Part shown: piece after piece, positions 1-16,315 of the stretch
How the letters are laid out: the number at the start of each line of letters is the position of its first letter
Numbering within the stretch: position 1 is the stretch's first letter
DNA from: an uncultured delta proteobacterium
GTDB taxonomy: Bacteria; Desulfobacterota; BSN033; UBA1163
NCBI GenBank assembly: GCA_963827685.1
Contig: CAWHBU010000004.1
Location: forward strand, 1 to 64,000
Reading direction: 5' to 3'
DNA length: 64,000 nucleotides
Notes under the pieces: model-generated
Told to the model about the DNA's origin: nothing
What the model saw: the letters and a program-made list of their open reading frames with translations, nothing else
Database searches by the model: none
Translations under genes and position numbers: made by a program

Positions 1-200
1 TGCCCTGCCGGGGGTGCTATGGACCTCCTCCGGACATAACGGATCAGGGGGCCAAGATGCTAAGTGCTGTTGGTTCCATCATTGATTCTCAGGACCCCGA
101 ACAGATCGAAAAGATCATCGATGGAATCGTCGATCCCTTGGGGACGTTTTATCGCTTCGGCTTGCCTGCCTCGGCATTGAGGAAGAAGAGGTTTCCATGA
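1..200 (+). CDS. mvhG: 3' end of F420-non-reducing [NiFe]-hydrogenase small subunit (MvhG-like), partial
   Basis: Reading from nt 3 gives PCRGCYGPPPDITDQGAKMLSAVGSII...DPLGTFYRFGLPAS, the typical MvhG C-terminus; stop TGA 198-200 overlaps the mvhA ATG (ATGA). Confidence 0.85.
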   Translation, partial: PCRGCYGPPPDITDQGAKMLSAVGSIIDSQDPEQIEKIIDGIVDPLGTFYRFGLPASALRKKRFP

Positions 201-1660
201 AAACAATATCGATTGATCCGATCACCCGATTAGAAGGACACGGCAAGATCGAGATTTTTTTGAACGACCAGGGGAACGTGGAGAATGCCTACTTTCAGGT
301 CCCTGAGTTGAGAGGATTCGAGGTCTTCTGTTTGGGAAGACCGGTAGAGGAGCTTCCCCGAATCGTTCCCCGAATCTGCGGCGTCTGACCCGGAGCTCAT
401 CACATGGCCTCGGGTAAGGCCGTAGATGCCGTTTATAAGACTGACCCTCCGCGGGCGGCCAAAAAGCTTCGGGAGCTTTTTTATTCTGCCCATTATGTCC
501 ATAGCCACACCCTTCATTTTTATGCCCTGGCAGCTCCCGATTTCGTGTTGGGTCCTGATGCAAAGCCTGCTGAAAGGAATATCCTTGGTCTGATTAACAA
601 GGTTGGCTTGGAGATCGGAAAAGAGGTCATCAAGAATAGAGCCTATTCTCAAGATATCCAGAGAACCATTGCTGGACGCGCCACCCATCTGGTTTGGAGC
701 CTGCCCGGAGGGGTGAGCAAAGGTATCACCGAGGAGGAGCGGAAGAAGATTTTAGAAATGGCCAAGGTGAACCTGGAATTCGCAAAATTCGGACTTAAGC
801 TCTTCGACGATGTGGTCCTGAAAAACCAGGCGTATGTAGATCTCATTCTGAGTGATGCCTATCAGACCGTGACTAATTATATGGGGCTTGTGGACCGAAA
901 CAATAAGGTTAACTTCTACGATGGCATGGTCCGAGTCGTTGACACCGAAGCCAAGGAGATTGCCAAATTCAAACCGGCGGACTACCTCCAGCATATCAAG
1001 GAACATGTAGAACCATGGTCCTATTTAAAGTTTCCGTTCCTTAAGAAGATTGGGTGGAAAGGTTTTGTGGAGGGTCCGAAAAGCGGAGTCTACCGGGCAG
1101 CGCCATTAGCAAGGCTCAATGTGGCGGATGGGATGGCCACTCCTCTGGCCCAGGAGGCCTATGAGAAATATTTCGATACCCTCGGAGGGAAACCGGTCCA
1201 CTCAACGTTAGCCATGCATTGGGCGAGATTGGTAGAACTCCTCTATGCCGCAGAAAGGCAGTTGGAGCTCGTTCAAGATATCGAGATCACGGACCCTAAG
1301 GTGAGGATTATCCCGAATAAGATTCCTGACGAAGGCGTTGGAGTGGTGGAGGCACCGAGGGGAACTTTGTATCACCATTACAAGACCGATGAAAAAGGAA
1401 TGGTGACCAGGGTGAATCTCATCGTCGGGACGACCAATAACAACGCTCCGATCTGTATGTCCATCCGGAAGGCCGCACAGGGCCTGATCAAGGCAGGTAC
1501 GATTGTCACGGAGGGCCTTCTCAACAGGATCGAAATGGCCTTTCGAGCCTATGACCCGTGCCTCAGCTGTGCAACCCATTCCCTGCCGGGACAGATGCCA
1601 TTGCAGGTGGTCATCAAGGGCCCCCAGGGGGAGATATTGAGAACGATTACCAGGGGCTGA
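197..1660 (+). CDS. mvhA: Group 3c-type [NiFe]-hydrogenase large subunit, probable selenoprotein (TGA 386-388 = Sec)
   Basis: ORFs 197..388 and 404..1660 are in one frame: IDPITRLEGHG...PRICGV*PGAHHMAS...EAPRGTLYHHY...RAYDPCLSCATH plus a cleavable C-terminal tail. TGA occupies the second Cys of RICGxC. Confidence 0.9.
404..423 (+). promoter_or_regulatory. SECIS-like hairpin for mvhA
   Basis: ATGGCCT/AGGCCGT stem (one G-U pair), loop CGGGTA starting 22 nt after the UGA, G at loop position 2. Confidence 0.7.
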
Positions 1661-1720
1661 CCCTGATTTTATGTTGAAAAGGCAGTTAGGTGTGCCTTTT
1701 GGAACTGGCGGATTGAGACG

Positions 1721-2284
1721 ATGAAAACTCTGTTATTAGGATTAGGCAATCCCATACTGAAAGATGACTCTGTTGGTCTGAAGGTCGTGAGGGAGCTTGG
1801 AGAGAAGGTAACAGAGGAGGATGTCCATGTCGAGGAGGCGAGTTTTGCTAATATCGATATCCTGGAAGCTATTGGTTCCTATGATCGATTGATCATCGTG
1901 GACAGCATCAAGACCAAGGAGGGAAACCCCGGAGAGCTCTACCAGTTGAGTCTGGATGACTTCCGGTCAACCTTGCATTTGAGCTCTCCCCATGACATCA
2001 ACTTGGCCACGGCCTTGGAGTTAGGTAAACGCCTGGGAATGCACGTTCCCAGAGAGATTCGCATTTATGCTATCGAGATCGAGGACAATCAGACTTTCTC
2101 TGAGACCTGCAGCCCATCGGTGGAACGCGCGACTCCACGAATCGTGAAGGAGATCGCCGAAAGAGAGCGTTCCATCTTTGGAAGAAAAAGTCTTGGTTGT
2201 CGAGAAGAAGCACCAAATAACAAGCACCTGCCTTCGCCGGAGCGCTTCGCGCAGGCAGGCCAAATGACAAATAAATTCCAATGA
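1721..2284 (+). CDS. Hydrogenase maturation endopeptidase (HyaD/HybD/HycI family)
   Basis: LLLGLGNPILKDDSVG, IIVDSI, SSPHDINL motifs; the last ~25 aa run into repeat DNA and may be spurious. Confidence 0.9.
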   Translation: MKTLLLGLGNPILKDDSVGLKVVRELGEKVTEEDVHVEEASFANIDILEAIGSYDRLIIVDSIKTKEGNPGELYQLSLDDFRSTLHLSSPHDINLATALELGKRLGMHVPREIRIYAIEIEDNQTFSETCSPSVERATPRIVKEIAERERSIFGRKSLGCREEAPNNKHLPSPERFAQAGQMTNKFQ

Positions 2285-2376
2285 GGGAAATTCAAAATCC
2301 AAACAAAACTCTTTTGGTCATTTGGAATTGTGAATTGGGATTTATTTGGAATTTGGGATTTGAAATTTGTAATTTC
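2205..2376. repeat. Degenerate heptamer-repeat palindrome with a nested CCTGCC...GGCAGG insert
   Basis: A-rich arm (caaataacaagcac, caaatgacaaataaattccaa) facing a T-rich arm (tttggtcatttggaattgtgaattgggattt); insert at 2227-2259. Confidence 0.6.
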
Positions 2377-2451
2377 ACTCTGTTCCTGGTGAGTGTAAAT
2401 TTTTTTAGCTCCCTCAGGTTTTAAGGGAGTTCAGGGGCTGAAGGAGAACCT

Positions 2452-5400
2452 ATGGATCGGGTTGCATTGCCGGCAAAGAATGACAAGGTTGGAGCCGTCA
2501 TGGTGGTGGGAGGAGGCATTGCCGGAATTCAAGCCTCTCTCGACCTGGCCGAATCGGGTTATTTCGTCTATGTGGTAGAGAGGGCTCCTGGCATCGGAGG
2601 GGTCATGGCTCAGCTGGATAAGACCTTTCCCACTCACGATTGTGCCATGTGAATCCTCTCTCCCAAGCTCGTGGAGCTTGGTCGCCATCTGAATGTAAAG
2701 ATCTTGTCCTATGCCGAGGTTTTGGAGGTAGAGGGTGAACCGGGTCGGTATCGGGTGCGCGTGAAGGAGCACTCCAGATATATTGACCCGCTGAAGTGCA
2801 CCGGTTGCGGCGAATGTCCCCGGGTTTGTCCGGTTGAACTGCCCAGCGAATATCAGGGGGGCCTGGCCAAGAGGAAGGCCACCTATATTCCCTATGCGCA
2901 GTCCATTCCCAATGTCTATGCCATCCAAAAGGCGGAGAGGCCACCTTGTGTGATGGCATGTCCCGCTGGTGTGAACGTCCAAGGTTATGTTGCCCTCACT
3001 TCTCAGGGGAGGTATCAGGATGCTTTGGAGGTTATCAAGAGAGACCTTCCCTTCCCCGGGATATTGGGTCGGATCTGTCCTCACCCTTGCGAGGGGGTAT
3101 GCAATCGTGAGTTGGTTGATGAACCCGTTGCGATTTGCGGCCTCAAGCGGTATGTGGCAGACCGGGTGAAGTCCGGTAACGGTGATACGAAGCCTACGGT
3201 TGCTGAACGAAGGCCTGAACGAGTGGCCGTAGTGGGTTCCGGACCGGCCGGGTTAGCGTGCGCTTACTATCTGGCATTGCGCGGTTATGGGGTGACGGTC
3301 TTTGAGGCATTGCCCGTTGTGGGCGGAATGCTTTCCGTAGCGATTCCCGAGTACCGATTGCCAAGGGATATATTAGCCGACGAGGTCAAGGCCGTGACAG
3401 ATCTTGGAGTAGAGATCAGGGTGAACACTCCCATTGGCGGAGACCTGACGTTGGATGGGCTTTTCGAAGAGGGCTACAAGTCGGTTTTTCTGGCGATGGG
3501 CGCTCATGGTAATTTACCCCTCAACATCAGAGGTGAGGGTGCCAAGGAAGTTGTTTCGGGCGTGAAATTTCTGCGGGATTTTAATCTTGGCAGGAAAATG
3601 GAGGTTGGCCAAAAGGTTGTGGTCGTCGGCGGTGGGAATGTGGCCATCGATGGAGCGCGATCGGCTTTAAGGCTGGGCGCAAAAGAAGTGACGATTCTTT
3701 ATCGGAGGTCCAGGCAGGAAATGCCCGCCAGTGATGAAGAGATAGAGGCCGCCATATCTGAAGGGGTGACGATTACCTATCTTGCTGCTCCGATTGAGGT
3801 ACTGGTGGAGGAAGAGGGAAAGGTTAGAGGGTTACGGTGTATCCGGATGCGTTTGGGTCCTCTTGATGCCAGCGGTAGGAGTCGGCCTGTGCCTATCGAA
3901 GGATCTGAGTTTTATGTCGGTGCGGACATGGTCGTCGTGGCCATCGGTCAGGTTCCTGAGGTGGGTTTCTTGGAATCGAGCGGAGTTAAGATCACGAAGG
4001 CTGGGACGGTAGATGTCGATCCTCTCAGCCTGGCTACGAGTCGGCAGGCTGTCTTTGCAGGAGGTGATGCTCAGACCGGTCCGTGGATCGCCATTGGCGC
4101 AGTGGAAGCCGGAAAGCGCGGAGCGGAATCGATTGATCGTTATCTGCGCGGTGAGGATTTACGGCAGGGTCGGCAGTTACGTGAGAAGGCCAAACAATGG
4201 GATCTCAGTGGAATCCCTCTCGGTCAAGAGACAAGTCCTCGGCAGCGGATGCAGCATCTTTCCGTGGCAAGGAGGAAAGCTGGTTTTGAAGAGGTGGAGC
4301 TCGGGTTTTCAGAAAAGCAGGCCCTGGAGGAAGCGAAGAGGTGTCTCAACTGCGGCATCTGTTGTGAGTGCTTAATGTGCGTCGCTGCCTGTAAGGCCCA
4401 GGCCATCGATCACAAACGGGAAGACACGATCTTGGAATTCGAGGTGGGAGCCGTCATCGTTAGCCCCGGCTTCGAGGAATATGATCCCACTCCTCTCTAT
4501 GAACTGGGTTACGGAAGATTGCCAAACGTGGTGACCTCGACGGAGTTCGAGCGGATATTGAGCGCCTCGGGTCCTTTTGAAGGCCATTTGCGAAGGCCCT
4601 CCGATGGGAAGGCTCCCCGAAGGGTTGCCTGGATTCAGTGCGTCGGGTCGAGGGATCCCGCGAATGGGTGCGGCTTCTGCAGCTCTGTCTGCTGCATGTT
4701 TGCGATCAAGGAGGCTGAAATAGCGAGAGAGCACAGCGAGCAGCCTCTCGATTCGACCATCTTCTTCATGGACATGCGGACCTATGGGAAGGACTTCGAT
4801 CGATACTACGAACAGGCGAAGAAGGTCCATGGGGTGAGGTTCGTCCGTTCCAAGGTATATGGCATCGAAGAACTTGACGGAACAGGGGAAGTCTCTGTTC
4901 GATTTACCACGGAGGACGGTAAGACACGGCGAGAGCCTTTCGATCTGGTGGTTCTCTCTGCAGGCCTTCATCCGCCTAAGGAAGGCAGGGAACTGGCTGA
5001 GAAGCTCGGAATCGAGCTTGATCAATACGGATTCTGCAAGTCCCGTGAATTCATGGCCGTTGATACGTCGAGAGATGGAGTATTCTCGTGTGGGGCCTTC
5101 AACGGTCCTAAAGATATTCCAGAAACCGTGATGCAGTCGAGCGGCGCGGCGGCCAGGGCTTCGGCATTACTCGCCTCAGTGAGGCACACCCTTACGAGGA
5201 AGAAGGAGTATCCTCCGGAAAAGGACGTTGCAGGAGAGGAGCCCAGGGTCGGGGTCTTCGTCTGCAAGTGCGGGATTAATATTGCGGGTGTGGTGAACGT
5301 TCCGGATGTCACCGAGTACGCAAAGGCCCTTCCCAATGTGGTCTTTACGGATAACAACCTGTATACCTGCAGCCAGGATACTCAGGAGATCATCAAACAA

Positions 5401-6927
5401 AAAATCTTGGAACACCGGCTCAACCGTGTGGTGGTGGCCTCTTGCAGTCCCAGGACACATGAACCCCTCTTCAGAGAGACCCTGAAAGAAGGAGGGCTCA
5501 ATCAGTACCTCTTTGAGATGGCGAATATTCGGGATCAATGTTCATGGGTTCATGCTCAGGATCCGACGGGGGCCACGGAGAAGGCAAAGGACCTGGTCCG
5601 GATGGCCGTGGCCAAGGCGAGATTGATCGAACCCTTGAAGCGGATGGCGGTTGATCTCACCCCGAGTGCTCTTGTGATCGGAGGAGGGATGGCAGGAATG
5701 ACGAGTGCCCTGAACCTTGCTGACCAGGGGTTTGAAGTCAGCCTGGTTGAGAAATCGGAGCGCCTCGGCGGGAATGCAAACCGGATTTACCGGAGCTTAA
5801 GCGGCGGAGATGTGCAGGCATTCTTGCATCAACAGATTGACAGGGTCATGGACCATCCTAAAATCCGGGTGCATCTGGGAAGTCGGGTGGCCGATTCTTC
5901 TGGTTACGTTGGAAACTTCGTTACCCGATTAAACGTGGGAAACGGTACCGAAGAAGAGGTCCGGCATGGTATCACCATTCTCGCGATTGGCGGTCGGGAG
6001 TTCAAGCCGGAAGAATATTATTACGGAAAAGATGAGCGGGTGCTGACGGGCCTTGAACTGGAAGAGGGGTTGGCTCTTCATCCTGAAAGATATGCGAACT
6101 GCGATAATGTCGTGATGATTCAGTGTGTCGGTTCACGGAATGAGGAACACCCGTGGTGCAGCCGAGTTTGCTGCGCAAAGTCGGTCAAGAATGCTCTGAA
6201 ACTAAAGGAACTCAACCCTGAGATGAATATCTATGTCCTCTACCGGGATATGAGGACCTACGGGCTCATGGAGGACTTTTTCAACGAGGCCAGGGAGAAA
6301 GGGATTGTGTTCCTTCGATTCGATCCCGAAGACTCACCGGTGGTGACAAAGGTTCGGGGGCATGGAAAGGATCTTTTGCAAGTGGAGATAAAAGATGCCC
6401 TCCTTGGAGAAAGGTTTGCCATCCATACGGATCTTTTGCAGCTGGCCACGGCGGTCCTTCCTCCTGAGGATAATAAGGTCCTTTCTCAATTCTACAAGGT
6501 CCCTGTCAATCAGGACGGCTTCTTCTTAGAAGCCCATATGAAACTTCGGCCCGTCGATTTTGCAACGGAGGGAGTCTTTTTATGCGGCCTCTGTCATAAT
6601 CCGAAGAGTATTGAAGAAAGTATCTCCCAGGCCAATGCAGCGGCTTCGAGGGCAAGCACGATCCTATCCAAAGAGAAGCTGGAGTCAGAAGGGGCGATCG
6701 CTTACATCAACAAGGACCTTTGCGTGGGCTGCCGGGGCTGCATCGATGTCTGCCCCTATACTGCCATCTCCTACGTGGATGAGAAGGCGAAGTGTGAAGT
6801 TAATGAGGTCCTTTGCAAAGGATGCGGGGGATGCGCCGCTACCTGTTCTTCGGGAAGCATCGCTCTCAGAGGATTCAGGTTCGATCAGATCTACGCCCAG
6901 ATTGAGAAGGCCTTTGAGACATTATGA
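2452..6927 (+). CDS. hdrA: Large heterodisulfide-reductase A-type flavoprotein (HdrL-like: HdrA modules plus an embedded GltD-like NAD(P)H module), probable selenoprotein (TGA 2650-2652)
   Basis: 2452..2652 and 2671..6927 in frame (1491 aa): [26 protein letters not shown] (CxxU), [39 protein letters not shown]...CSSVCC, second GGGMAG module, C-terminal 2x[4Fe-4S]. Confidence 0.9.
2663..2681 (+). promoter_or_regulatory. SECIS-like hairpin for hdrA/hdrL
   Basis: Perfect 8-bp stem CCAAGCTC/GAGCTTGG, loop GTG starting 18 nt after the UGA. Confidence 0.75.
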
Positions 6928-7206
6928 GATTACGGATACGGTTAGGGTTACGAAGCCCGTTTGGTTTAGGATCAAAGAAAATATCGATTAACGGCGACAA
7001 CGCTCGTATCGAAGCATGAAGCTCGATCAAAAAGAAGCTCGACCATCCGGTATCGATAGACAAGTCTCGATACGAGCTTCGACAACGATATACGTTGATT
7101 CCTTTAAGTTTTTTGAGCCCAAGACGTAACCGAATGACGAAACGGGCATCTTTACCCTTGCCCTGAGACGAAACTTTTATTTTCTAGGCAACGAGGGAGA
7201 GATCGT

Positions 7207-7644
7207 ATGGCAAAGGAAGCGCAAAGTGCAGCGGGTTTCGAGCCCAAGATAATTGCTTTTTTGTGTAACTGGTGCAGTTACGGAGGCGCTGACCTGGCTG
7301 GGGTCAGCCGGTTACAGTATCCGGCTAATACGCGGACGATCCGCGTCATGTGTACGGCGACTGTTTCTCCGCACCATATCCTGAAGGCCTTTCAGAAAGG
7401 GGCGGATGGAGTGTTGGTGGCTGGCTGTCACATTGGAGACTGCCACTATATGAAAGGAAACTATATGACCATCAAGCGTGTGGCCATCTTGAAGGAGCTC
7501 TTGAGGTTTACTGGGTTTCAGGAAGAAAGGTTGTATCTCGATTGGATCTCCTCAGCGGAAGGCGTGAGGTTTGCCGAGGTGATCCGAAACTTTACTCAGA
7601 AGGTTAAAGAGATGGGACCGTCGCATCTGAGAACAACCTACTAA
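7207..7644 (+). CDS. mvhD: Hydrogenase/Hdr [2Fe-2S] adaptor subunit (MvhD/FlpD)
   Basis: FEPKIIAFLCNWCSYGGADLAG, IRVMCT, GADGVLVAGCHIGDCHY; all ligands are Cys. Confidence 0.92.
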   Translation: MAKEAQSAAGFEPKIIAFLCNWCSYGGADLAGVSRLQYPANTRTIRVMCTATVSPHHILKAFQKGADGVLVAGCHIGDCHYMKGNYMTIKRVAILKELLRFTGFQEERLYLDWISSAEGVRFAEVIRNFTQKVKEMGPSHLRTTY

Positions 7645-7692
7645 TAAACGCATAGCGCATAGCAAAGCTCAAGTGGCTCACAGGGAGCAAAG

Positions 7693-8502
7693 ATGAAAGC
7701 AATGCAGGCAAGAGTCAGGAAGCTGCTCGAAGAAAAAACAGTCGATGGTTTCATCGGCCTGAAGATTGAGCATGGGCACCCCGCGCCCTTTATGTTCAGT
7801 CGTGAGAATTTAGACGAGATGGAAACATTGGTCGTAGGAGATGTCCGGTATCCGTTAAATAAAGCCCTGCTTAAGGTGGCCCATCAATACCCTGAGCTCA
7901 CTTTTGGAGTGATGGTAAGGGGATGCGACGAGAGGGGGTTGATAGAACTTTTTAAGTGGAATCAACTTAACCGAAATCGAGTCGTCCCTGTCGGGGTTGC
8001 CTGTGCTCGTGAACTGGCCGAGTCGTGTGAGTGCTACAAACCCTATCCTTCAGATTGGGTGGCAGGGGAGAAGACGGAAGGGATTACGAAGAGCAAGCGG
8101 CTGCAAAAGATCGAAGGAATGAACCAGAAGGAGAGGTTGGGTTATTGGTTAAATCAGTTCAATAAATGCATCAAATGTTATGGATGCAGGGATGTCTGCC
8201 CCATGTGTTTCTGCGAAGTCTGTAGCCTCGAGGATCGAAATTTCATCTTGACCGGCAAACTGCCTCCCGAGAACCCTACCTTTCACCTGAGCCGGGCGGT
8301 CCATATGGTAGGCAGGTGTATCGACTGCGGTCTCTGTGAAGAGGCCTGCCCTTCGAACATTCCGGTGAGGACCCTTTATAAGAAAGTAAATGAGATTGTC
8401 AAAGATTTTTTCGATTACAAGACAGGGGAATCTTTGGAAGGAAAATCGCCTCTCAATCTATTGGGGGAAGTGACCTTAGAGTTGTCGGACGTGAATAAAT
8501 AG
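7693..8502 (+). CDS. 2x[4Fe-4S] protein, FdhB/FlxC-like
   Basis: CIKCYGCRDVCPMCFC..C and HMVGRCIDCGLCEEACP motifs; lies between mvhD and fdhA. Confidence 0.75.
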   Translation: MKAMQARVRKLLEEKTVDGFIGLKIEHGHPAPFMFSRENLDEMETLVVGDVRYPLNKALLKVAHQYPELTFGVMVRGCDERGLIELFKWNQLNRNRVVPVGVACARELAESCECYKPYPSDWVAGEKTEGITKSKRLQKIEGMNQKERLGYWLNQFNKCIKCYGCRDVCPMCFCEVCSLEDRNFILTGKLPPENPTFHLSRAVHMVGRCIDCGLCEEACPSNIPVRTLYKKVNEIVKDFFDYKTGESLEGKSPLNLLGEVTLELSDVNK

Positions 8503-8514
8503 AAAGAGGTAAAG

Positions 8515-10554
8515 ATGGAGTACAAGACAGTTTTAACGACGTGTGGTTATTGCGGGTGTGGATGCGGACTTTATTTAGAGGTCTTGGACGGCCAGCTTGT
8601 GGGTGCCAAGCCTTGTAAGACAGACTCTGTCAGCCAGGGAGGGCTCTGTATCAAGGGTTGGAATATCCACGAATTCGTCCAGAATAGCGAAAGGCTGACT
8701 CAACCCCTGATCAGGAAAGATGGGCAATTCAAAGAAGCCACCTGGGATGAGGCCCTCGACACGGTCGCTTCCCGTCTCAAGAAAATTAAAGAGGAGAACG
8801 GGCCCGACAGAATCGCTTTTCTGACCTCGGCCAAGTGCACGAATGAAGAGAATTACCTTCTCCAGAAACTGGCCCGGGCAGTCGTAGGAACGAATAATGT
8901 CGACCACTGTGCAAGGCTCTGACACTCCTCCACGGTGGCTGGGCTAGCCGCCGCCTTTGGAAGTGGGGCCATGACGAACTCCATCGCCGAGATCGAAAAT
9001 TCTAAGTGCATTTTCATTATCGGGTCCAATACGTCGGAAGCCCATCCCCTCATCGGCTCAAGGATTCTCAAGGCAAAGGAGAAAGGGGCCAAACTCATTG
9101 TCGCGGATCCAAGAAGGATTCAGCTCTCCTTCTACGCAGATGTTTTTGTCCGTCAACAACTGGGGACAGATGTTGCCCTGATCAATGGGATCATGAATGT
9201 GATTCTTAAAGAGAAATGGTACGACCGCAAATTCGTCGAAGAGCGGACAGAAGGTTTCAAGGAGTTTCAGAAGGCAGTAGAAAGGTACACGCCGGAAAGT
9301 GTCGAAAAGATCACGGGCGTTCCTGCGCAGGATATCAGAAAAATTGCAGATCTGTACGCCCGATCGGAATCATCCTCCATCATCTATGCCATGGGGATCA
9401 CCCAGCACATCACCGGAGTGGATAACGTCAAATCTCTGGCCAACCTGGCGATGCTCTGTGGACAGATCGGAAGGGAGAGTACAGGGGTCAACCCACTTCG
9501 GGGTCAGAACAATGTGCAAGGGGCGTGTGATATGGGTGGGCTCCCGAATGTTTATCCAGGCTATCAGTCCGTCTCCGATGGTCAGATGGCTGAAAAGTTT
9601 GAAAAGGCCTGGGGGACAAAACTCTCTACCAAACCTGGAATGACAGTGACAGAGATGTTGAAAGCGGCCATGGCAGGAGAGGTGAAGGCCATGTTTATCC
9701 TGGGGGAGAACCCGATGGTCAGCGATGTTGATATTCAACATGTGGAGAAATCCCTGGAGGCCCTGGATTTTCTGGTCGTCCAGGATATCTTCATGTCGGA
9801 GACGGCAAGGCTGGCAGATGTGGTTCTTCCAGGCGTCTCCTTCGCTGAGAAGGATGGCACTTTCACCAATACGGAGAGGAAGGTCAAAAGAGTCAGAAAG
9901 GCGATTGAGCCGATAGGGTCGTCTCGGCAGGATTGGGAGATCATCTGTGACCTATCGACCAGGATGGGCTACCCCATGCGTTATGATGATCCGTCGAAAA
10001 TTCTTGAAGAGGTGGCCCAGGTAACGCCCAGCTACGGTGGCATCTATTATGACCGGATTGAGACAGAGGGGCTTTATTGGCCTTGTCCGAACCGGGCACA
10101 TCCGGGCACGCCTTATCTCCATAAGGATCGATTTAGCCGGGGTCTAGGCCTGTTCCATGCGATTGAGTATCTTCCCCCTGACGAGCTGCCGGATAAGGAA
10201 TATCCCTATCTCCTGACCACCGGAAGGATATACGTTCACTATCACACGGGGACCATGACGCGTCGTTCTCCCTCATTGAACAAAGAGGTCGAAGAGGGAT
10301 TTGCAGAGATCAATCCCAGACAGGCCAAGGAATTGGGGATTATTCAGGGAGAGAGGATTAAGGTTTTTTCAAGAAGGGGAGAAATTGAGATTAAAGCTGA
10401 CCTCAGCGAACGGATGGAGGGGAATACGATCTTTATTCCCTTTCATTTTGTTGAGAGTGCGGCCAACAGGCTGACCAATCCCGTCTTCGATCCTATCGCC
10501 CAGATCCCGGAATTTAAGGTCTGCGCCGTGAAGATCGAAAAGGTGAATCATTAA
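8515..10554 (+). CDS. fdhA: Cytoplasmic Mo/W formate dehydrogenase alpha subunit, selenoprotein (TGA 8920-8922)
   Basis: TCGYCGCGC...LCIKG, NNVDHCARL*HSSTVAGL (classic Sec site), PLRGQNNVQGACDMG, LTTGR..HYHTGTMTRRS, PEFKVCAVK; no Tat signal. Confidence 0.95.
8933..8953 (+). promoter_or_regulatory. SECIS-like hairpin for fdhA
   Basis: Stem CGGTGGCT/AGCCGCCG (one G-U pair), loop GGGCT starting 18 nt after the UGA. Confidence 0.75.
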
Positions 10555-10765
10555 GACCCGTGGCTTATAGCGGATGGGTTTGAGGTTCGAATTCTGCCAG
10601 ATACACTGAGCACGGGAAATAGTAAAATAGTAAACAGCATGCCTCCTTATTTGGTCGGAAGATTTTGTCCCCGCGTCTTCCCATCTCCTCATGTCCCCAT
10701 CTCTTCTACGCTCCATGCCTACACCGAATAACTTCGACTAATTTCCATATTACTGAAAAAAAGTC

Positions 10766-10797
10766 TTGACTTTTTTACGTATTTATGTAAAAAAGTC
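10766..10797 (+). promoter_or_regulatory. Putative sigma70 promoter overlapped by an 11-bp inverted repeat (operator)
   Basis: TTGACT at 10766; GACTTTTTTAC (10768-10778) / GTAAAAAAGTC (10787-10797) immediately before ATG 10801. Confidence 0.55.
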
Positions 10798-10800
10798 GGC

Positions 10801-12039
10801 ATGGAGAGGTTGGTCGGAAAATATATCTTCGACCCTGAAATCAGTGCCGGAAAGATGATTTTCCTCACGGGTCCCCGCCAGGTTGGCAAAACCACTTTTG
10901 CAAAAAACTGGCTTTCTTCTCAAAGGGTTGAGGAGACTTACTTTGACTGGGATGATCCGGCGATCAGGAGTGAGCACAGCCGGAATCCTCTTTATTTCCG
11001 AAATATTATCAACGCTAAGTTTAAGGGCAGACCTGTTCCCATGGTTTTTGATGAGATACACAAGCAGAAAAATTGGAAGAACATTCTCAAAGGAGTTTAC
11101 GATCCCAACAGGGAAAAAGTGCAACTCCTTGTGACAGGGAGTGCCCGCCTCGGGCTTTATCGAAAGTCAGGGGATTCCCTTGTCGGTAGATACTTTTCCT
11201 TTCAGATGTTCCCTCTGGGGCTACCCGAGGCTACGAGTGATTTTTCCTGGGTTCTTGAAGAAGATCGTCCCCTTGTTGACGGCGATTCACTGGTAGAACA
11301 CGCGAGGAAAGTTAATAACAAACACGTCGAAGAAGGCCTTGAGAAGCTCCTGACCTTTGGAGGATTTCCAGAGCCTTTCTTGAAAGCTTCACCAAGGTTC
11401 CATCAGCGATGGATCAAGGAATATAAAACGTTGCTCACAAGGGAAGAGGTTCGGGACCTTTCAAGGATCTCAGACATTAGAGGTCTTGAACACCTGATTG
11501 ACATCCTTCCTTCGAAGGTGGGTTCCCCACTCAGTATCAATTCATTGAGAGAAGACTTGGGATATCATCACAGTACCCTTGTCAATTGGATCAATATCCT
11601 CAAGGAGCTCTATCTGGTATTTACCATCCGCCCGTGGCACAAGAATATCCTCCGTTCGATCAGGAAAGAAGCAAAACTCTTCTTTCTTGACTGGTCCAGC
11701 CTTCCGGATCAGGGGAAGCGTTTCGAAAACCTGATGGCGGTAAGCCTGATCAGGATGGCTGCCAGGTTCACAGAAATGGGTTTGGGAGTTTTTGAGGTCA
11801 TGTATATTCGGGACAAAGAAAAGCGCGAGGTGGACTTCGTCCTGATTAAGGATAATAGACCGATGGCTCTCTTTGAAACAAAGGAAGGAGATTCTGAAAT
11901 CAGTCCATCCGGGAGATATTTTGGGAAAAGGCTCGACATCCCTCTTTACCAGATCGTGCACCGTTGTGGAAGGTGTGAAGCATTTCCGGGCAATTGCTTC
12001 AAAATTCCTGCGTCAAAGTTCCTGATGCTTACCGGATAA
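10801..12039 (+). CDS. AAA_14-type ATPase with DUF4143/PD-(D/E)xK-like C-terminus
   Basis: GPRQVGKTT Walker A, VFDEIHK Walker B, VTGSA, FGGFPEP, FENL, REVDFVL..ETK. Confidence 0.85.
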   Translation: MERLVGKYIFDPEISAGKMIFLTGPRQVGKTTFAKNWLSSQRVEETYFDWDDPAIRSEHSRNPLYFRNIINAKFKGRPVPMVFDEIHKQKNWKNILKGVYDPNREKVQLLVTGSARLGLYRKSGDSLVGRYFSFQMFPLGLPEATSDFSWVLEEDRPLVDGDSLVEHARKVNNKHVEEGLEKLLTFGGFPEPFLKASPRFHQRWIKEYKTLLTREEVRDLSRISDIRGLEHLIDILPSKVGSPLSINSLREDLGYHHSTLVNWINILKELYLVFTIRPWHKNILRSIRKEAKLFFLDWSSLPDQGKRFENLMAVSLIRMAARFTEMGLGVFEVMYIRDKEKREVDFVLIKDNRPMALFETKEGDSEISPSGRYFGKRLDIPLYQIVHRCGRCEAFPGNCFKIPASKFLMLTG

Positions 12040-15259: not shown

Positions 15260-16315
15260 TTGATCTCTGCGCTCTGCAATTTTAATGATGCGGCTGAGTC
15301 CGTAGGCTACTGTTCGGCTGAGGGGGGGTACCTCTTACCGACTTATACTATTGACGAAATATTAAAAGAGTACGAGGTTATTTTCGGAAAGGCTCTTCGT
15401 GATCCGAGTAATCTAGTTGAGGACTTGGCACATCCTGACGGCACTCCATACGTACGTAAAGACCCATACGGGCCGGAAGAACCTGGAATTGAGAGTATTA
15501 AATCATGGGATGATTTTTGTGAGTTTGTTAAGGGGCAACGGCGGTTTACAGCACTCATGCCAACTGGGGATCAACCCTTTCCCGAGGAGAATCACTTCGA
15601 TTTTTTGAATCAACTCGCAGACAGGCTGAATGATAGATTGCTCATAGAACTTAGTCCAGGGACGAAAATATACAGGGCTAGGTTAGAACAAAAAGGGACG
15701 ATATTCAAACACAAAGATTTGACGAGCCCTCCCATAGAGAAAACAAGAAACAGTCGTATGAGTCCAGCCGGCATCTCTCTTTTTTATGGAGGATTAGATG
15801 TGGAAACTTGTATATGTGAAGTCCGTCCGAATGTTGGCGAAAAAGTAATAGTTGCAGAATTCCAGGTCTTAAAAACACTGAAGATATTGAACCTCTCGGC
15901 CAGAGAATTAGAGGAACAGCCACTGAGTATTTTTGACGAAAAATACTCGTTCGAGTATGAGGAGTATTTCAAGCCGTTCATCAATTACTTTGTACGCGAT
16001 ATATCAAGACCCATTCGGCCAAATGATGCGGCTGTAGACTATACACCCACACAGGTTTTTACAGAATTCATGAGGATCAGAAAGTTCCGGGACTTAATTG
16101 AGGTGATCACTAATAATACCGGAGAAACTTATAATATAACTGGCCTATTGTACAATAGCTTTTTGAATAAAGACGGCGTGAATATCGTATTATTCAGAGG
16201 TCCCGACATTTCAACTGATCAACCGGGTCAGAATCCGAGCGCTTGGCTTTCATACCAGGGTTTTAGTACTTATGAAGCCAAGGAATTGAAGCTGACTTAC
16301 GAGAAATTGACTTAG
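15260..16315 (+). CDS. RES-domain protein (HEPN-associated-NTD/RES type), probably N-terminally truncated
   Basis: IYRAR, SPP...NSRMSPAGISLFYG..D.ETCICEVR, DYTPTQVFTEF, GLLYNS...NIVLF; weak TTG start with no clear SD. Confidence 0.7.
   Translation: MISALCNFNDAAESVGYCSAEGGYLLPTYTIDEILKEYEVIFGKALRDPSNLVEDLAHPDGTPYVRKDPYGPEEPGIESIKSWDDFCEFVKGQRRFTALMPTGDQPFPEENHFDFLNQLADRLNDRLLIELSPGTKIYRARLEQKGTIFKHKDLTSPPIEKTRNSRMSPAGISLFYGGLDVETCICEVRPNVGEKVIVAEFQVLKTLKILNLSARELEEQPLSIFDEKYSFEYEEYFKPFINYFVRDISRPIRPNDAAVDYTPTQVFTEFMRIRKFRDLIEVITNNTGETYNITGLLYNSFLNKDGVNIVLFRGPDISTDQPGQNPSAWLSYQGFSTYEAKELKLTYEKLT

Follow-up and report, generated by a model that had tools for sequence, protein, structure and literature searches.

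An in-frame UGA, probably decoded as selenocysteine, at the predicted N-terminal bridging position of an Mvh-type hydrogenase in an uncultured delta proteobacterium

Results

A hydrogenase large-subunit gene with one internal UGA

The DNA considered here (the window) is 64,000 nucleotides long, positions 1 to 64,000 of the forward strand of contig CAWHBU010000004.1 from an uncultured delta proteobacterium (assembly GCA_963827685.1; 5.2 Mb in 14 contigs, 94.5% complete, 7.98% contamination), and it starts at the first base of that contig, C4. Near this contig end lies the gene for the large subunit of an Mvh-type [NiFe] hydrogenase, crossed by a single UGA codon which, in our view very probably, is decoded as selenocysteine (Sec) at the position expected to bridge nickel and iron. 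The gene and the elements within it are as follows.

197-1660, + strand: MvhA-type [NiFe] hydrogenase large-subunit gene, 487 residues with Sec at residue 64 when TGA is translated as U
377-379, + strand: Cys61, first cysteine of the N-terminal motif; by homology and the available text of PMC13582414, a predicted terminal nickel ligand
386-388, + strand: the UGA codon, predicted Sec64, at the second position of RxCGxC; expected by homology to bridge nickel and iron
404-423, + strand: hairpin like a bacterial Sec insertion sequence (SECIS), with a 7-bp stem (6 bp conserved) and hexaloop CGGGUA, from folding and comparison
1553-1579, + strand: C-terminal motif D-P-C455-L-S-C458-A-T-H461, residues 453-461, all cysteine

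Frame 2 of the + strand runs from an ATG at 197 to a TGA stop at 1658-1660 and is open except for the internal TGA at 386-388. The N-terminal motif (L1) reads R-I-C-G-V-U over residues 59-64, U replacing the second cysteine of RxCGxC. In the C-terminal motif (L2), Cys455 is encoded by TGC at 1559-1561 and Cys458 lies at 1568-1570, so that a cysteine stands where canonical [NiFeSe] enzymes have Sec, at the first cysteine of that motif (DPUxxC); His461 marks the predicted maturation cleavage site. A preliminary description of this DNA, made from the sequence alone, had reported both the in-frame TGA at the second L1 cysteine and the all-cysteine L2 (DPCLSC), and both are borne out. It had also taken the second L1 cysteine to be a nickel-iron bridge, a predicted role that is backed by homology and by the available text of PMC13582414 and PMC8020662; by homology the first cysteine of each motif is terminal on nickel and the second bridges nickel and iron, and the first of these papers says so for N-terminal CXXU.

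The best NCBIfam match of the large subunit is VhuA (NF041785), at 422.5 bits against a cut-off of 800 bits, and because the score falls below the cut-off we regard the protein, on sequence grounds, as a bacterial relative of methanococcal VhuA rather than its equivalog. Its best solved relatives are a NiFe hydrogenase large subunit (7t2r_D, 409 bits), MvhA (5odc_F, 403 bits) and VhuA (9sw2_F, 394 bits), while Group 1 [NiFeSe] structures score at most 148 bits. Motifs, nearest relatives and gene cluster agree in assigning it, as far as homology can, to the Mvh/Vhu type (Group 3c-like); relatives and neighbourhood are of the Mvh/Hdr type and not those of a Group 4 membrane-bound energy-converting complex.

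The UGA codon is conserved under purifying selection

A search of 61 genomes (the source genome, G000, and 60 relatives) gave matches at E<=1e-30 in 22 of them, with 30 loci returned. Seven of these loci combine CxxU in L1 with CxxC in L2: the window gene, a second copy on contig C5 of the same assembly, and one each in genomes G004, G005, G006, G012 and G028. The canonical DPULSC is found in six Mvh paralogues that are more distant (46-49% identical), and DPULGC in two Group-1-like genes. Both G006 (L026/L046) and G012 (L024/L047), which are of the same genus, hold an L1-Sec gene together with a 46-49% identical DPULSC paralogue with Sec in L2; the position of Sec therefore follows the lineage of the enzyme and not the organism.

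A wider scan covered 185,579 species genomes and confirmed 501 relatives, of which the best 80 were taken: six CxxU/CxxC genes, 73 CxxC/CxxC genes and one cut before L2. The six CxxU species are a Syntrophaceae metagenome-assembled genome (MAG) at 90% identity, three Dehalococcoidia at 70-71%, a Latescibacteria MAG at 68% and a Peptococcaceae MAG at 65%. Genes with UGA at the second N-terminal cysteine (TGA-type, as opposed to Cys-type) thus total 13 of 90 close homologues from genome assemblies. Metagenome contigs were scanned with a degenerate pattern, I-C-G-x-U-P-x-A-H-H, in which TGA was required and the hairpin was not included. At least 120 stretches matched, and 79 of the 80 fetched are recognisable hydrogenase genes (the exception is L147); all 60 fetched contigs with a complete downstream frame continue for 422-436 further residues and carry DPCxxC, and 19 of the 80 fetched genes run off the contig. 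Clustered at 90% identity, the 73 full-length TGA-type sequences from genomes and metagenomes give 40 clusters; between pairs of sequences, identity goes down to 56% (median 69%). A TGA conserved in related mvhA genes, by which the preliminary description had proposed to judge its claim, is accordingly present in both sets of genomic loci and in the metagenome contigs.

The codon could in principle mark a pseudogene, or an assembly or sequencing error for TGC or TGT. Either cysteine codon is one base away from TGA, the gene sits at a contig end, and the MAG has an estimated contamination of 7.98%; but the same TGA occurs in independent assemblies. Nei-Gojobori dN/dS between the window gene and seven orthologues (the ratio of nonsynonymous to synonymous substitution rates) is 0-0.054 over codons 1-63 (dS 0.39-1.07) and 0.021-0.055 over codons 65-487 (dS 0.19-1.17), so purifying selection is strong on both sides of the TGA, and its action on both halves while the TGA persists excludes a pseudogene. 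As to an error, four public sequencing runs, all of them contigs, were aligned to 150-1700, and no difference at 386-388 appears among the difference rows listed. One of these, from a Nanopore metatranscriptome library, is an 1872-nt contig that covers the gene from end to end and shows 86 differences, although DNA carry-over is possible. Since all four are contigs they carry no information on expression level, and the support of public runs for the TGA is weak; the labels of the runs in which 38-54% of the gene's sampled words occur read wetland, peat, freshwater sediment, soil or simply metagenome. Taken together, the pseudogene or error explanation seems to us hardly credible.

Translation might instead stop at the UGA, after 63 residues, and restart at the ATG at 404 to make a separate protein of 418 residues, a split resembling that of Methanococcus VhuA/VhuU. 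That ATG lies only 15 nt past the UGA, the 418-residue frame (404-1660) is among the listed open reading frames (ORFs), and split large subunits are known in methanococci (the NCBIfam VhuU model). Such a split would, however, cost the protein its bridging ligand together with P-G-A-H-H (residues 65-69), a stretch that all homologues conserve, and the ATG itself is not conserved, since Leu (CTG or TTG) replaces Met in 6 of the 13 TGA-type genome sequences. We consider a split subunit extremely improbable.

A near-invariant hairpin follows the UGA

The hairpin begins 15 nt after the UGA, with its stem formed by 404-410 and 417-423 and its loop by 411-416. It was compared over 90 loci (80 from the species scan together with L022-L029, L044 and L045), a set which left out 20 more distant or fragmentary loci of the related-genome search. 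The 13 TGA-type genes all have fixed codons for (M/L)-A-S-(G/C)-K-A, form six pairs and have the loop CG(G/U)G(U/C)A, whereas only 10 of 77 Cys-type genes can form 6/6 pairs (Cys-type mean 3.96 pairs); over the 20-nt segment, energy averages -8.9 kcal/mol in the TGA-type and -3.7 in the Cys-type. The M-A-S-G-K-A peptide is also encoded by many Cys-type genes, through different codons, and their synonymous sites drift. RNAalifold recovers the same 6-pair helix, in which five pairs are invariant and the closing pair is U-G in eight sequences and U-A in five. Among the fetched metagenome contigs 77 of 80 have the hairpin (loops CGGGTA in 35, CGTGTA in 32 and CGTGCA in 10), and so a downstream stem-loop with a conserved apical-loop G accompanies the UGA in 13/13 genome and 77/80 metagenome sequences. 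The folding z-score of the 28-nt hairpin is modest, at -2.2, and folding energy by itself is weak evidence; the comparative signal, in codon and hairpin, goes far past what chance would give. Because the stem is nearly invariant, it is frozen synonymous sites, rather than covariation, that support a SECIS; on that footing the SECIS-like hairpin of the preliminary description is confirmed.

The nearest Cys-type genes in Dehalococcoidia (L053, L066 and L067) keep a GGCCUC...AAGGCC stem behind their TGC/TGT codon but are missing the loop Gs, and may hold a remnant or a precursor of a SECIS. Such a stem without the loop Gs in Cys-type genes matches what the available text of PMC13582414 describes for Group 4.

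The genome encodes the selenocysteine machinery

The assembly has a tRNA-Sec gene (81.7 bits, the single Rfam match above cut-off), and ARAGORN finds 49 tRNAs of which tRNA-SeC is the sole one with a UCA anticodon; selA (630 bits), selB (357 bits) and selD (384 bits) also score above their cut-offs. The genome thus encodes selA and selB together with selC and selD, and the organism is, to judge from these genes, able to decode UGA as Sec; a genome without this machinery would have spoken against the preliminary description, which had named selABCD as a check. The selD gene (G000:C6:489003-489929) itself holds one in-frame TGA, as a selenoprotein SelD.

An alternative is that a ReC/selC*-type tRNA inserts cysteine at the UGA, or that a near-cognate tRNA reads through it, for example with Trp, in which case the protein would be an ordinary [NiFe] hydrogenase or would carry a non-ligand residue at position 64. 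The residue inserted is not distinguishable by bioinformatics, and a second tRNA could have been missed because the assembly is 94.5% complete. Against such decoding, the only UCA-anticodon tRNA is tRNA-SeC and only one Rfam tRNA-Sec match exceeds the cut-off, and delivery of Cys-tRNA by EF-Tu would not need the SelB-type hairpin that is kept throughout the genome set and in nearly all metagenome contigs (13/13 and 77/80). We therefore think cysteine or near-cognate decoding very unlikely.

Evolutionary distribution of the TGA-type genes

A quick IQ-TREE phylogeny of 90 sequences, with support from the Shimodaira-Hasegawa-like approximate likelihood ratio test (SH-aLRT) and a midpoint root used for drawing only, places TGA-type genes in three positions: a Syntrophaceae clade of eight (support 99), a pair from Latescibacteria and Peptococcaceae (94) and a Dehalococcoidia trio (97), the last nested among Cys-type Dehalococcoidia. 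Alignment columns with a residue in at least 90% of TGA-type and at most 25% of Cys-type sequences were looked for and none was found; relaxed thresholds gave only lineage-type differences between the two types.

Residue 103 (about 503-505, in H-S-H-x-x-H-F-Y) is Ser in 72 of 73 TGA-type sequences, while Cys-type sequences have Asp (48/77) or Ser (29/77), a pattern that may reflect lineage only. This residue may correspond to the 'canopy' Asp-to-Ser position of canonical [NiFeSe] enzymes that PMC8020662 mentions.

Neighbouring genes

The genes around the large-subunit gene are:

3-200, + strand: 3' end of a small-subunit gene (MvhG/VhuG-like), cut by the contig start; NCBIfam VhuG NF045875, E 6.7e-5, profile positions 232-284 of 286
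1721-2284, + strand: hydrogenase maturation endopeptidase; TIGR00072, 100.3 bits against a cut-off of 47.45
2452-6927, + strand: HdrL-like giant flavoprotein of 1491 residues (HdrA, GltD-like NAD(P) module, HdrA); NCBIfam HdrA2 965.7 bits, PRK12771 581 bits
7207-7644, + strand: MvhD (FlpD) subunit in its Cys form; Pfam PF02662, 181 bits, and translation
7693-8502, + strand: 4Fe-4S ferredoxin-domain protein (FdhB-like electron-transfer subunit); Pfam Fer4 families
8515-10554, + strand: formate dehydrogenase alpha subunit (FdhA) with Sec136 at 8920-8922; translation and Pfam Molybdopterin families

Three Sec codons lie within about 10 kb, in the hydrogenase, HdrL and FdhA genes. The HdrL-like protein (a name taken from the available text of PMC5947623) has an in-frame TGA at 2650-2652 (Sec67 of D-C-A-M-U), and a hairpin of 8 bp with a GUG loop comes after it; at the FdhA UGA, Rfam SECIS_3 matches 8917-8975 (E 6.5e-9), its 48.7 bits falling short of the gathering score of 63. 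Both hairpins have G-rich apical loops. The position of FdhA directly after the MvhD and 4Fe-4S genes suggests one complex using both H2 and formate. In a Syntrophaceae-like anaerobe, the hydrogenase would serve as H2 module to a cytoplasmic complex, Mvh(AGD)-HdrL-Fdh(AB), that performs flavin-based electron bifurcation or confurcation.

Some further observations concern this part of the genome. Standard gene calling would cut the HdrL-like gene into ORFs of 66 and 1418 residues. The stretch between the protease and hdrL genes (2285-2451) is AT-rich, with repeated GGAATT/GGGATTT-like words. On the 3' side of the hydrogenase/Fdh cluster are a gene for an AAA_14/DUF4143 ATPase (10801-12039) and one with HEPN_RES_NTD1 and RES domains (15260-16315; toxin-antitoxin-like). 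The second mvhG-mvhA copy, at G000:C5:372215-373675 (L044, L132), is 93% identical and also CxxU; it adjoins a contig end, and its neighbours (an ABC-2 transporter, a metallo-beta-lactamase fold protein and Fur) do not include protease or HdrL genes. As both copies are at contig ends and the assembly has 7.98% contamination, it may be a true paralogue or come from a second strain in the bin.

Discussion

We propose that the UGA at 386-388 is, with high probability, decoded as Sec at the predicted nickel-iron bridging position of an Mvh-type hydrogenase. The sequences themselves show the UGA, its conservation in genes under purifying selection, a hairpin conserved with it, the genes for Sec insertion and the gene neighbourhood. 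Several results weigh against the proposal. Three of the 80 metagenome contigs are without the standard hairpin, a different fold being found in L139 and no hairpin in L204 or L147. Compensatory changes in the stem were looked for and none was seen, the closing pair varying on one side only, and over longer segments the folding energy is not better than that of shuffled sequences (z -0.91 for 380-450 and -0.78 for 386-435). No Rfam SECIS family matches at the hydrogenase UGA (386-445, with E up to 10 allowed over 1-11000), the only match being SECIS_3 at FdhA. The TGA-type sequences are related to each other, so that the counts of TGA are not counts of independent events; the tree requires only 2-3 state changes, at least three in all, of which well-supported branches force at least two. 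And, as no residue elsewhere in the protein separates TGA-type from Cys-type, the sequences give no hint that the surroundings of the active site have adapted.

The route by which the enzyme would be made can be sketched from established bacterial Sec decoding and [NiFe] maturation. The hairpin at 404-423, within the coding sequence, would recruit SelB-GTP-Sec-tRNA(Sec), SelB binding the loop and Sec being delivered to the UGA. The large subunit would take up Fe(CN)2CO and nickel, with Cys61 and Cys455 as terminal nickel ligands and Sec64 and Cys458 bridging nickel and iron, and its C-terminal tail would be cut off after His461 by the protease of the neighbouring gene. Selenium would then be present as a selenolate bridging the two metals, and sulfur would remain at Cys455, the terminal ligand beside the proton-relay Glu. 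We infer the incorporation of selenium, the bridging geometry and any catalytic effect.

To our knowledge, all characterised [NiFeSe] hydrogenases have selenium at one terminal ligand, and their fast H2 production and resilience to O2 are attributed to that terminal Sec position. The canonical enzymes, Hys of Desulfovibrio vulgaris and Desulfomicrobium baculatum (Group 1a) and methanococcal Vhu/Fru (Group 3), share with the window enzyme the [NiFe] fold and the replacement of one cysteine ligand by Sec through UGA and a SECIS; but in them Sec is the first, terminal cysteine of the C-terminal motif, near the proton-relay Glu, whereas the window enzyme has Cys455 there and its predicted Sec in L1.

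A nearer experimental parallel is the engineered C79U variant of Escherichia coli Hyd-1 (Evans et al. 2021; PMC8020662), which has Sec at the equivalent second N-terminal cysteine. According to the available text of that study, C79U matured and had 13% of native H2 oxidation, the best of four Cys-to-Sec variants; its Michaelis constant for H2, KM(H2), was lower, its activation enthalpy was higher and it was almost inactive under prolonged 10% O2, special O2 tolerance belonging instead to C576U, at the canonical position. C79U is artificial, was made by UAG suppression and belongs to an O2-tolerant Group 1d enzyme, in contrast to the window enzyme, which would be a natural Group 3 form. As C79U is the only experimental guide, what might be expected of Sec64, by analogy, is a tuning of the electronic structure of the Ni-Fe site or of H2 affinity and not the proton-relay role or phenotype of canonical [NiFeSe] enzymes; we regard such effects as possible.

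It could also be that Sec is inserted but serves chiefly in regulation, tying hydrogenase synthesis to selenium supply, with the bridging exchange of selenium for sulfur catalytically near-neutral. No active-site residue co-varies with the exchange, Cys-type and TGA-type genes interleave on the tree, and C79U was near native in overpotential and in its transient O2 response (PMC8020662, available text), all of which such a role would accommodate. The TGA has, though, been kept down to 56% identity despite the cost of decoding Sec, and the changes of C79U in KM(H2), activation enthalpy and tolerance of prolonged O2 (same source) do not point to neutrality. We judge a chiefly regulatory Sec unlikely, if less easily set aside than cysteine decoding.

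The novelty implied by the preliminary description does not hold, as CxxU hydrogenase sequences have been in print since 2007 and 2011, and Group 4 examples since 2026. Zhang and Gladyshev (2007; PMC1976440) noted a CxxU 'FrhA' (COG3259) in the Olavius algarvensis symbiont metagenome, which resembles the window gene in its new Sec position (CxxU as against the known UxxC), in being a Group 3 large subunit and in coming from a deltaproteobacterium; the available text leaves unspecified whether that CxxU is N- or C-terminal. Takano et al. (2026; PMC13582414) describe, in the text available, 47 Group 4 sequences with N-terminal CXXU, UXXC or UXXU, and credit Baltazar et al. (2011, Eur J Inorg Chem) with N-terminal CXXU in two Group 1 sequences and one Group 3 sequence; the bridging cysteine of Baltazar et al. 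is cited discordantly, as N-terminal CXXU in PMC13582414 and as C579 in PMC8020662, again as far as the available texts go. The CxxU enzymes of Takano et al. resemble ours in having an all-cysteine C-terminal motif, a downstream hairpin with an apical-loop G and selABCD, and in being known from sequences alone, but theirs are membrane-bound Group 4 enzymes, whereas the window enzyme is of the cytoplasmic Mvh type (Group 3-like). Where available, the text of two recent selenoproteome reviews (PMC13188914, PMC9312934) gives only UxxC for MvhA/VhuA/VhuU, and in the literature outside subscription journals we found no biochemical study of a natural L1-Sec enzyme and no survey of Group 3 CxxU forms. 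The present analysis widens the scope to a diverse clade of Group 3 enzymes from at least four phyla (40 clusters among 73 full-length sequences, rather than a single sequence) and adds a frozen SECIS; this is confirmation and not discovery.

The gene cluster, too, has known relatives. Desulfobacterium autotrophicum and Syntrophobacter fumaroxidans have HdrL/MvhD/FeS clusters (PMC2702500, PMC5947623, available text) which, like the methanogen MvhAGD-HdrABC complex (5odc), are close to the window cluster. Shared features are an Mvh-type hydrogenase beside MvhD and an HdrA-family flavoprotein, an HdrA Sec in D-C-x-x-U and an HdrL-type fusion with an NAD(P)-binding module. The window cluster differs from them in having no hdrBC within the annotated stretch, an attached Sec-type formate dehydrogenase and the predicted L1 Sec in its large subunit.

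We suggest, tentatively, a wider reading: that L1-Sec Mvh hydrogenases are a large, old, environmentally abundant and functionally distinct subclass, with its own near-invariant SECIS, in at least four bacterial phyla. Their coexistence with L2-Sec paralogues in some genomes would argue for functional distinctness, and they would have been missed in hydrogenase surveys because gene callers stop at UGA. If callers do stop there, as we infer, surveys of H2 metabolism made from predicted proteins would undercount or truncate such genes; the variant is common in uncultured anaerobes and was noted earlier from sequences. A natural family with a bridging selenium would stand ready for testing how the position of the chalcogen tunes the Ni-Fe site, as a complement to the engineered Hyd-1 variants. 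Should the wider reading be true, these organisms may use a natural selenolate-bridged Ni-Fe site with properties unlike those of either [NiFe] or canonical [NiFeSe] enzymes; affinity for H2, the stability of the hydride and resistance to sulfide are examples of what might differ.

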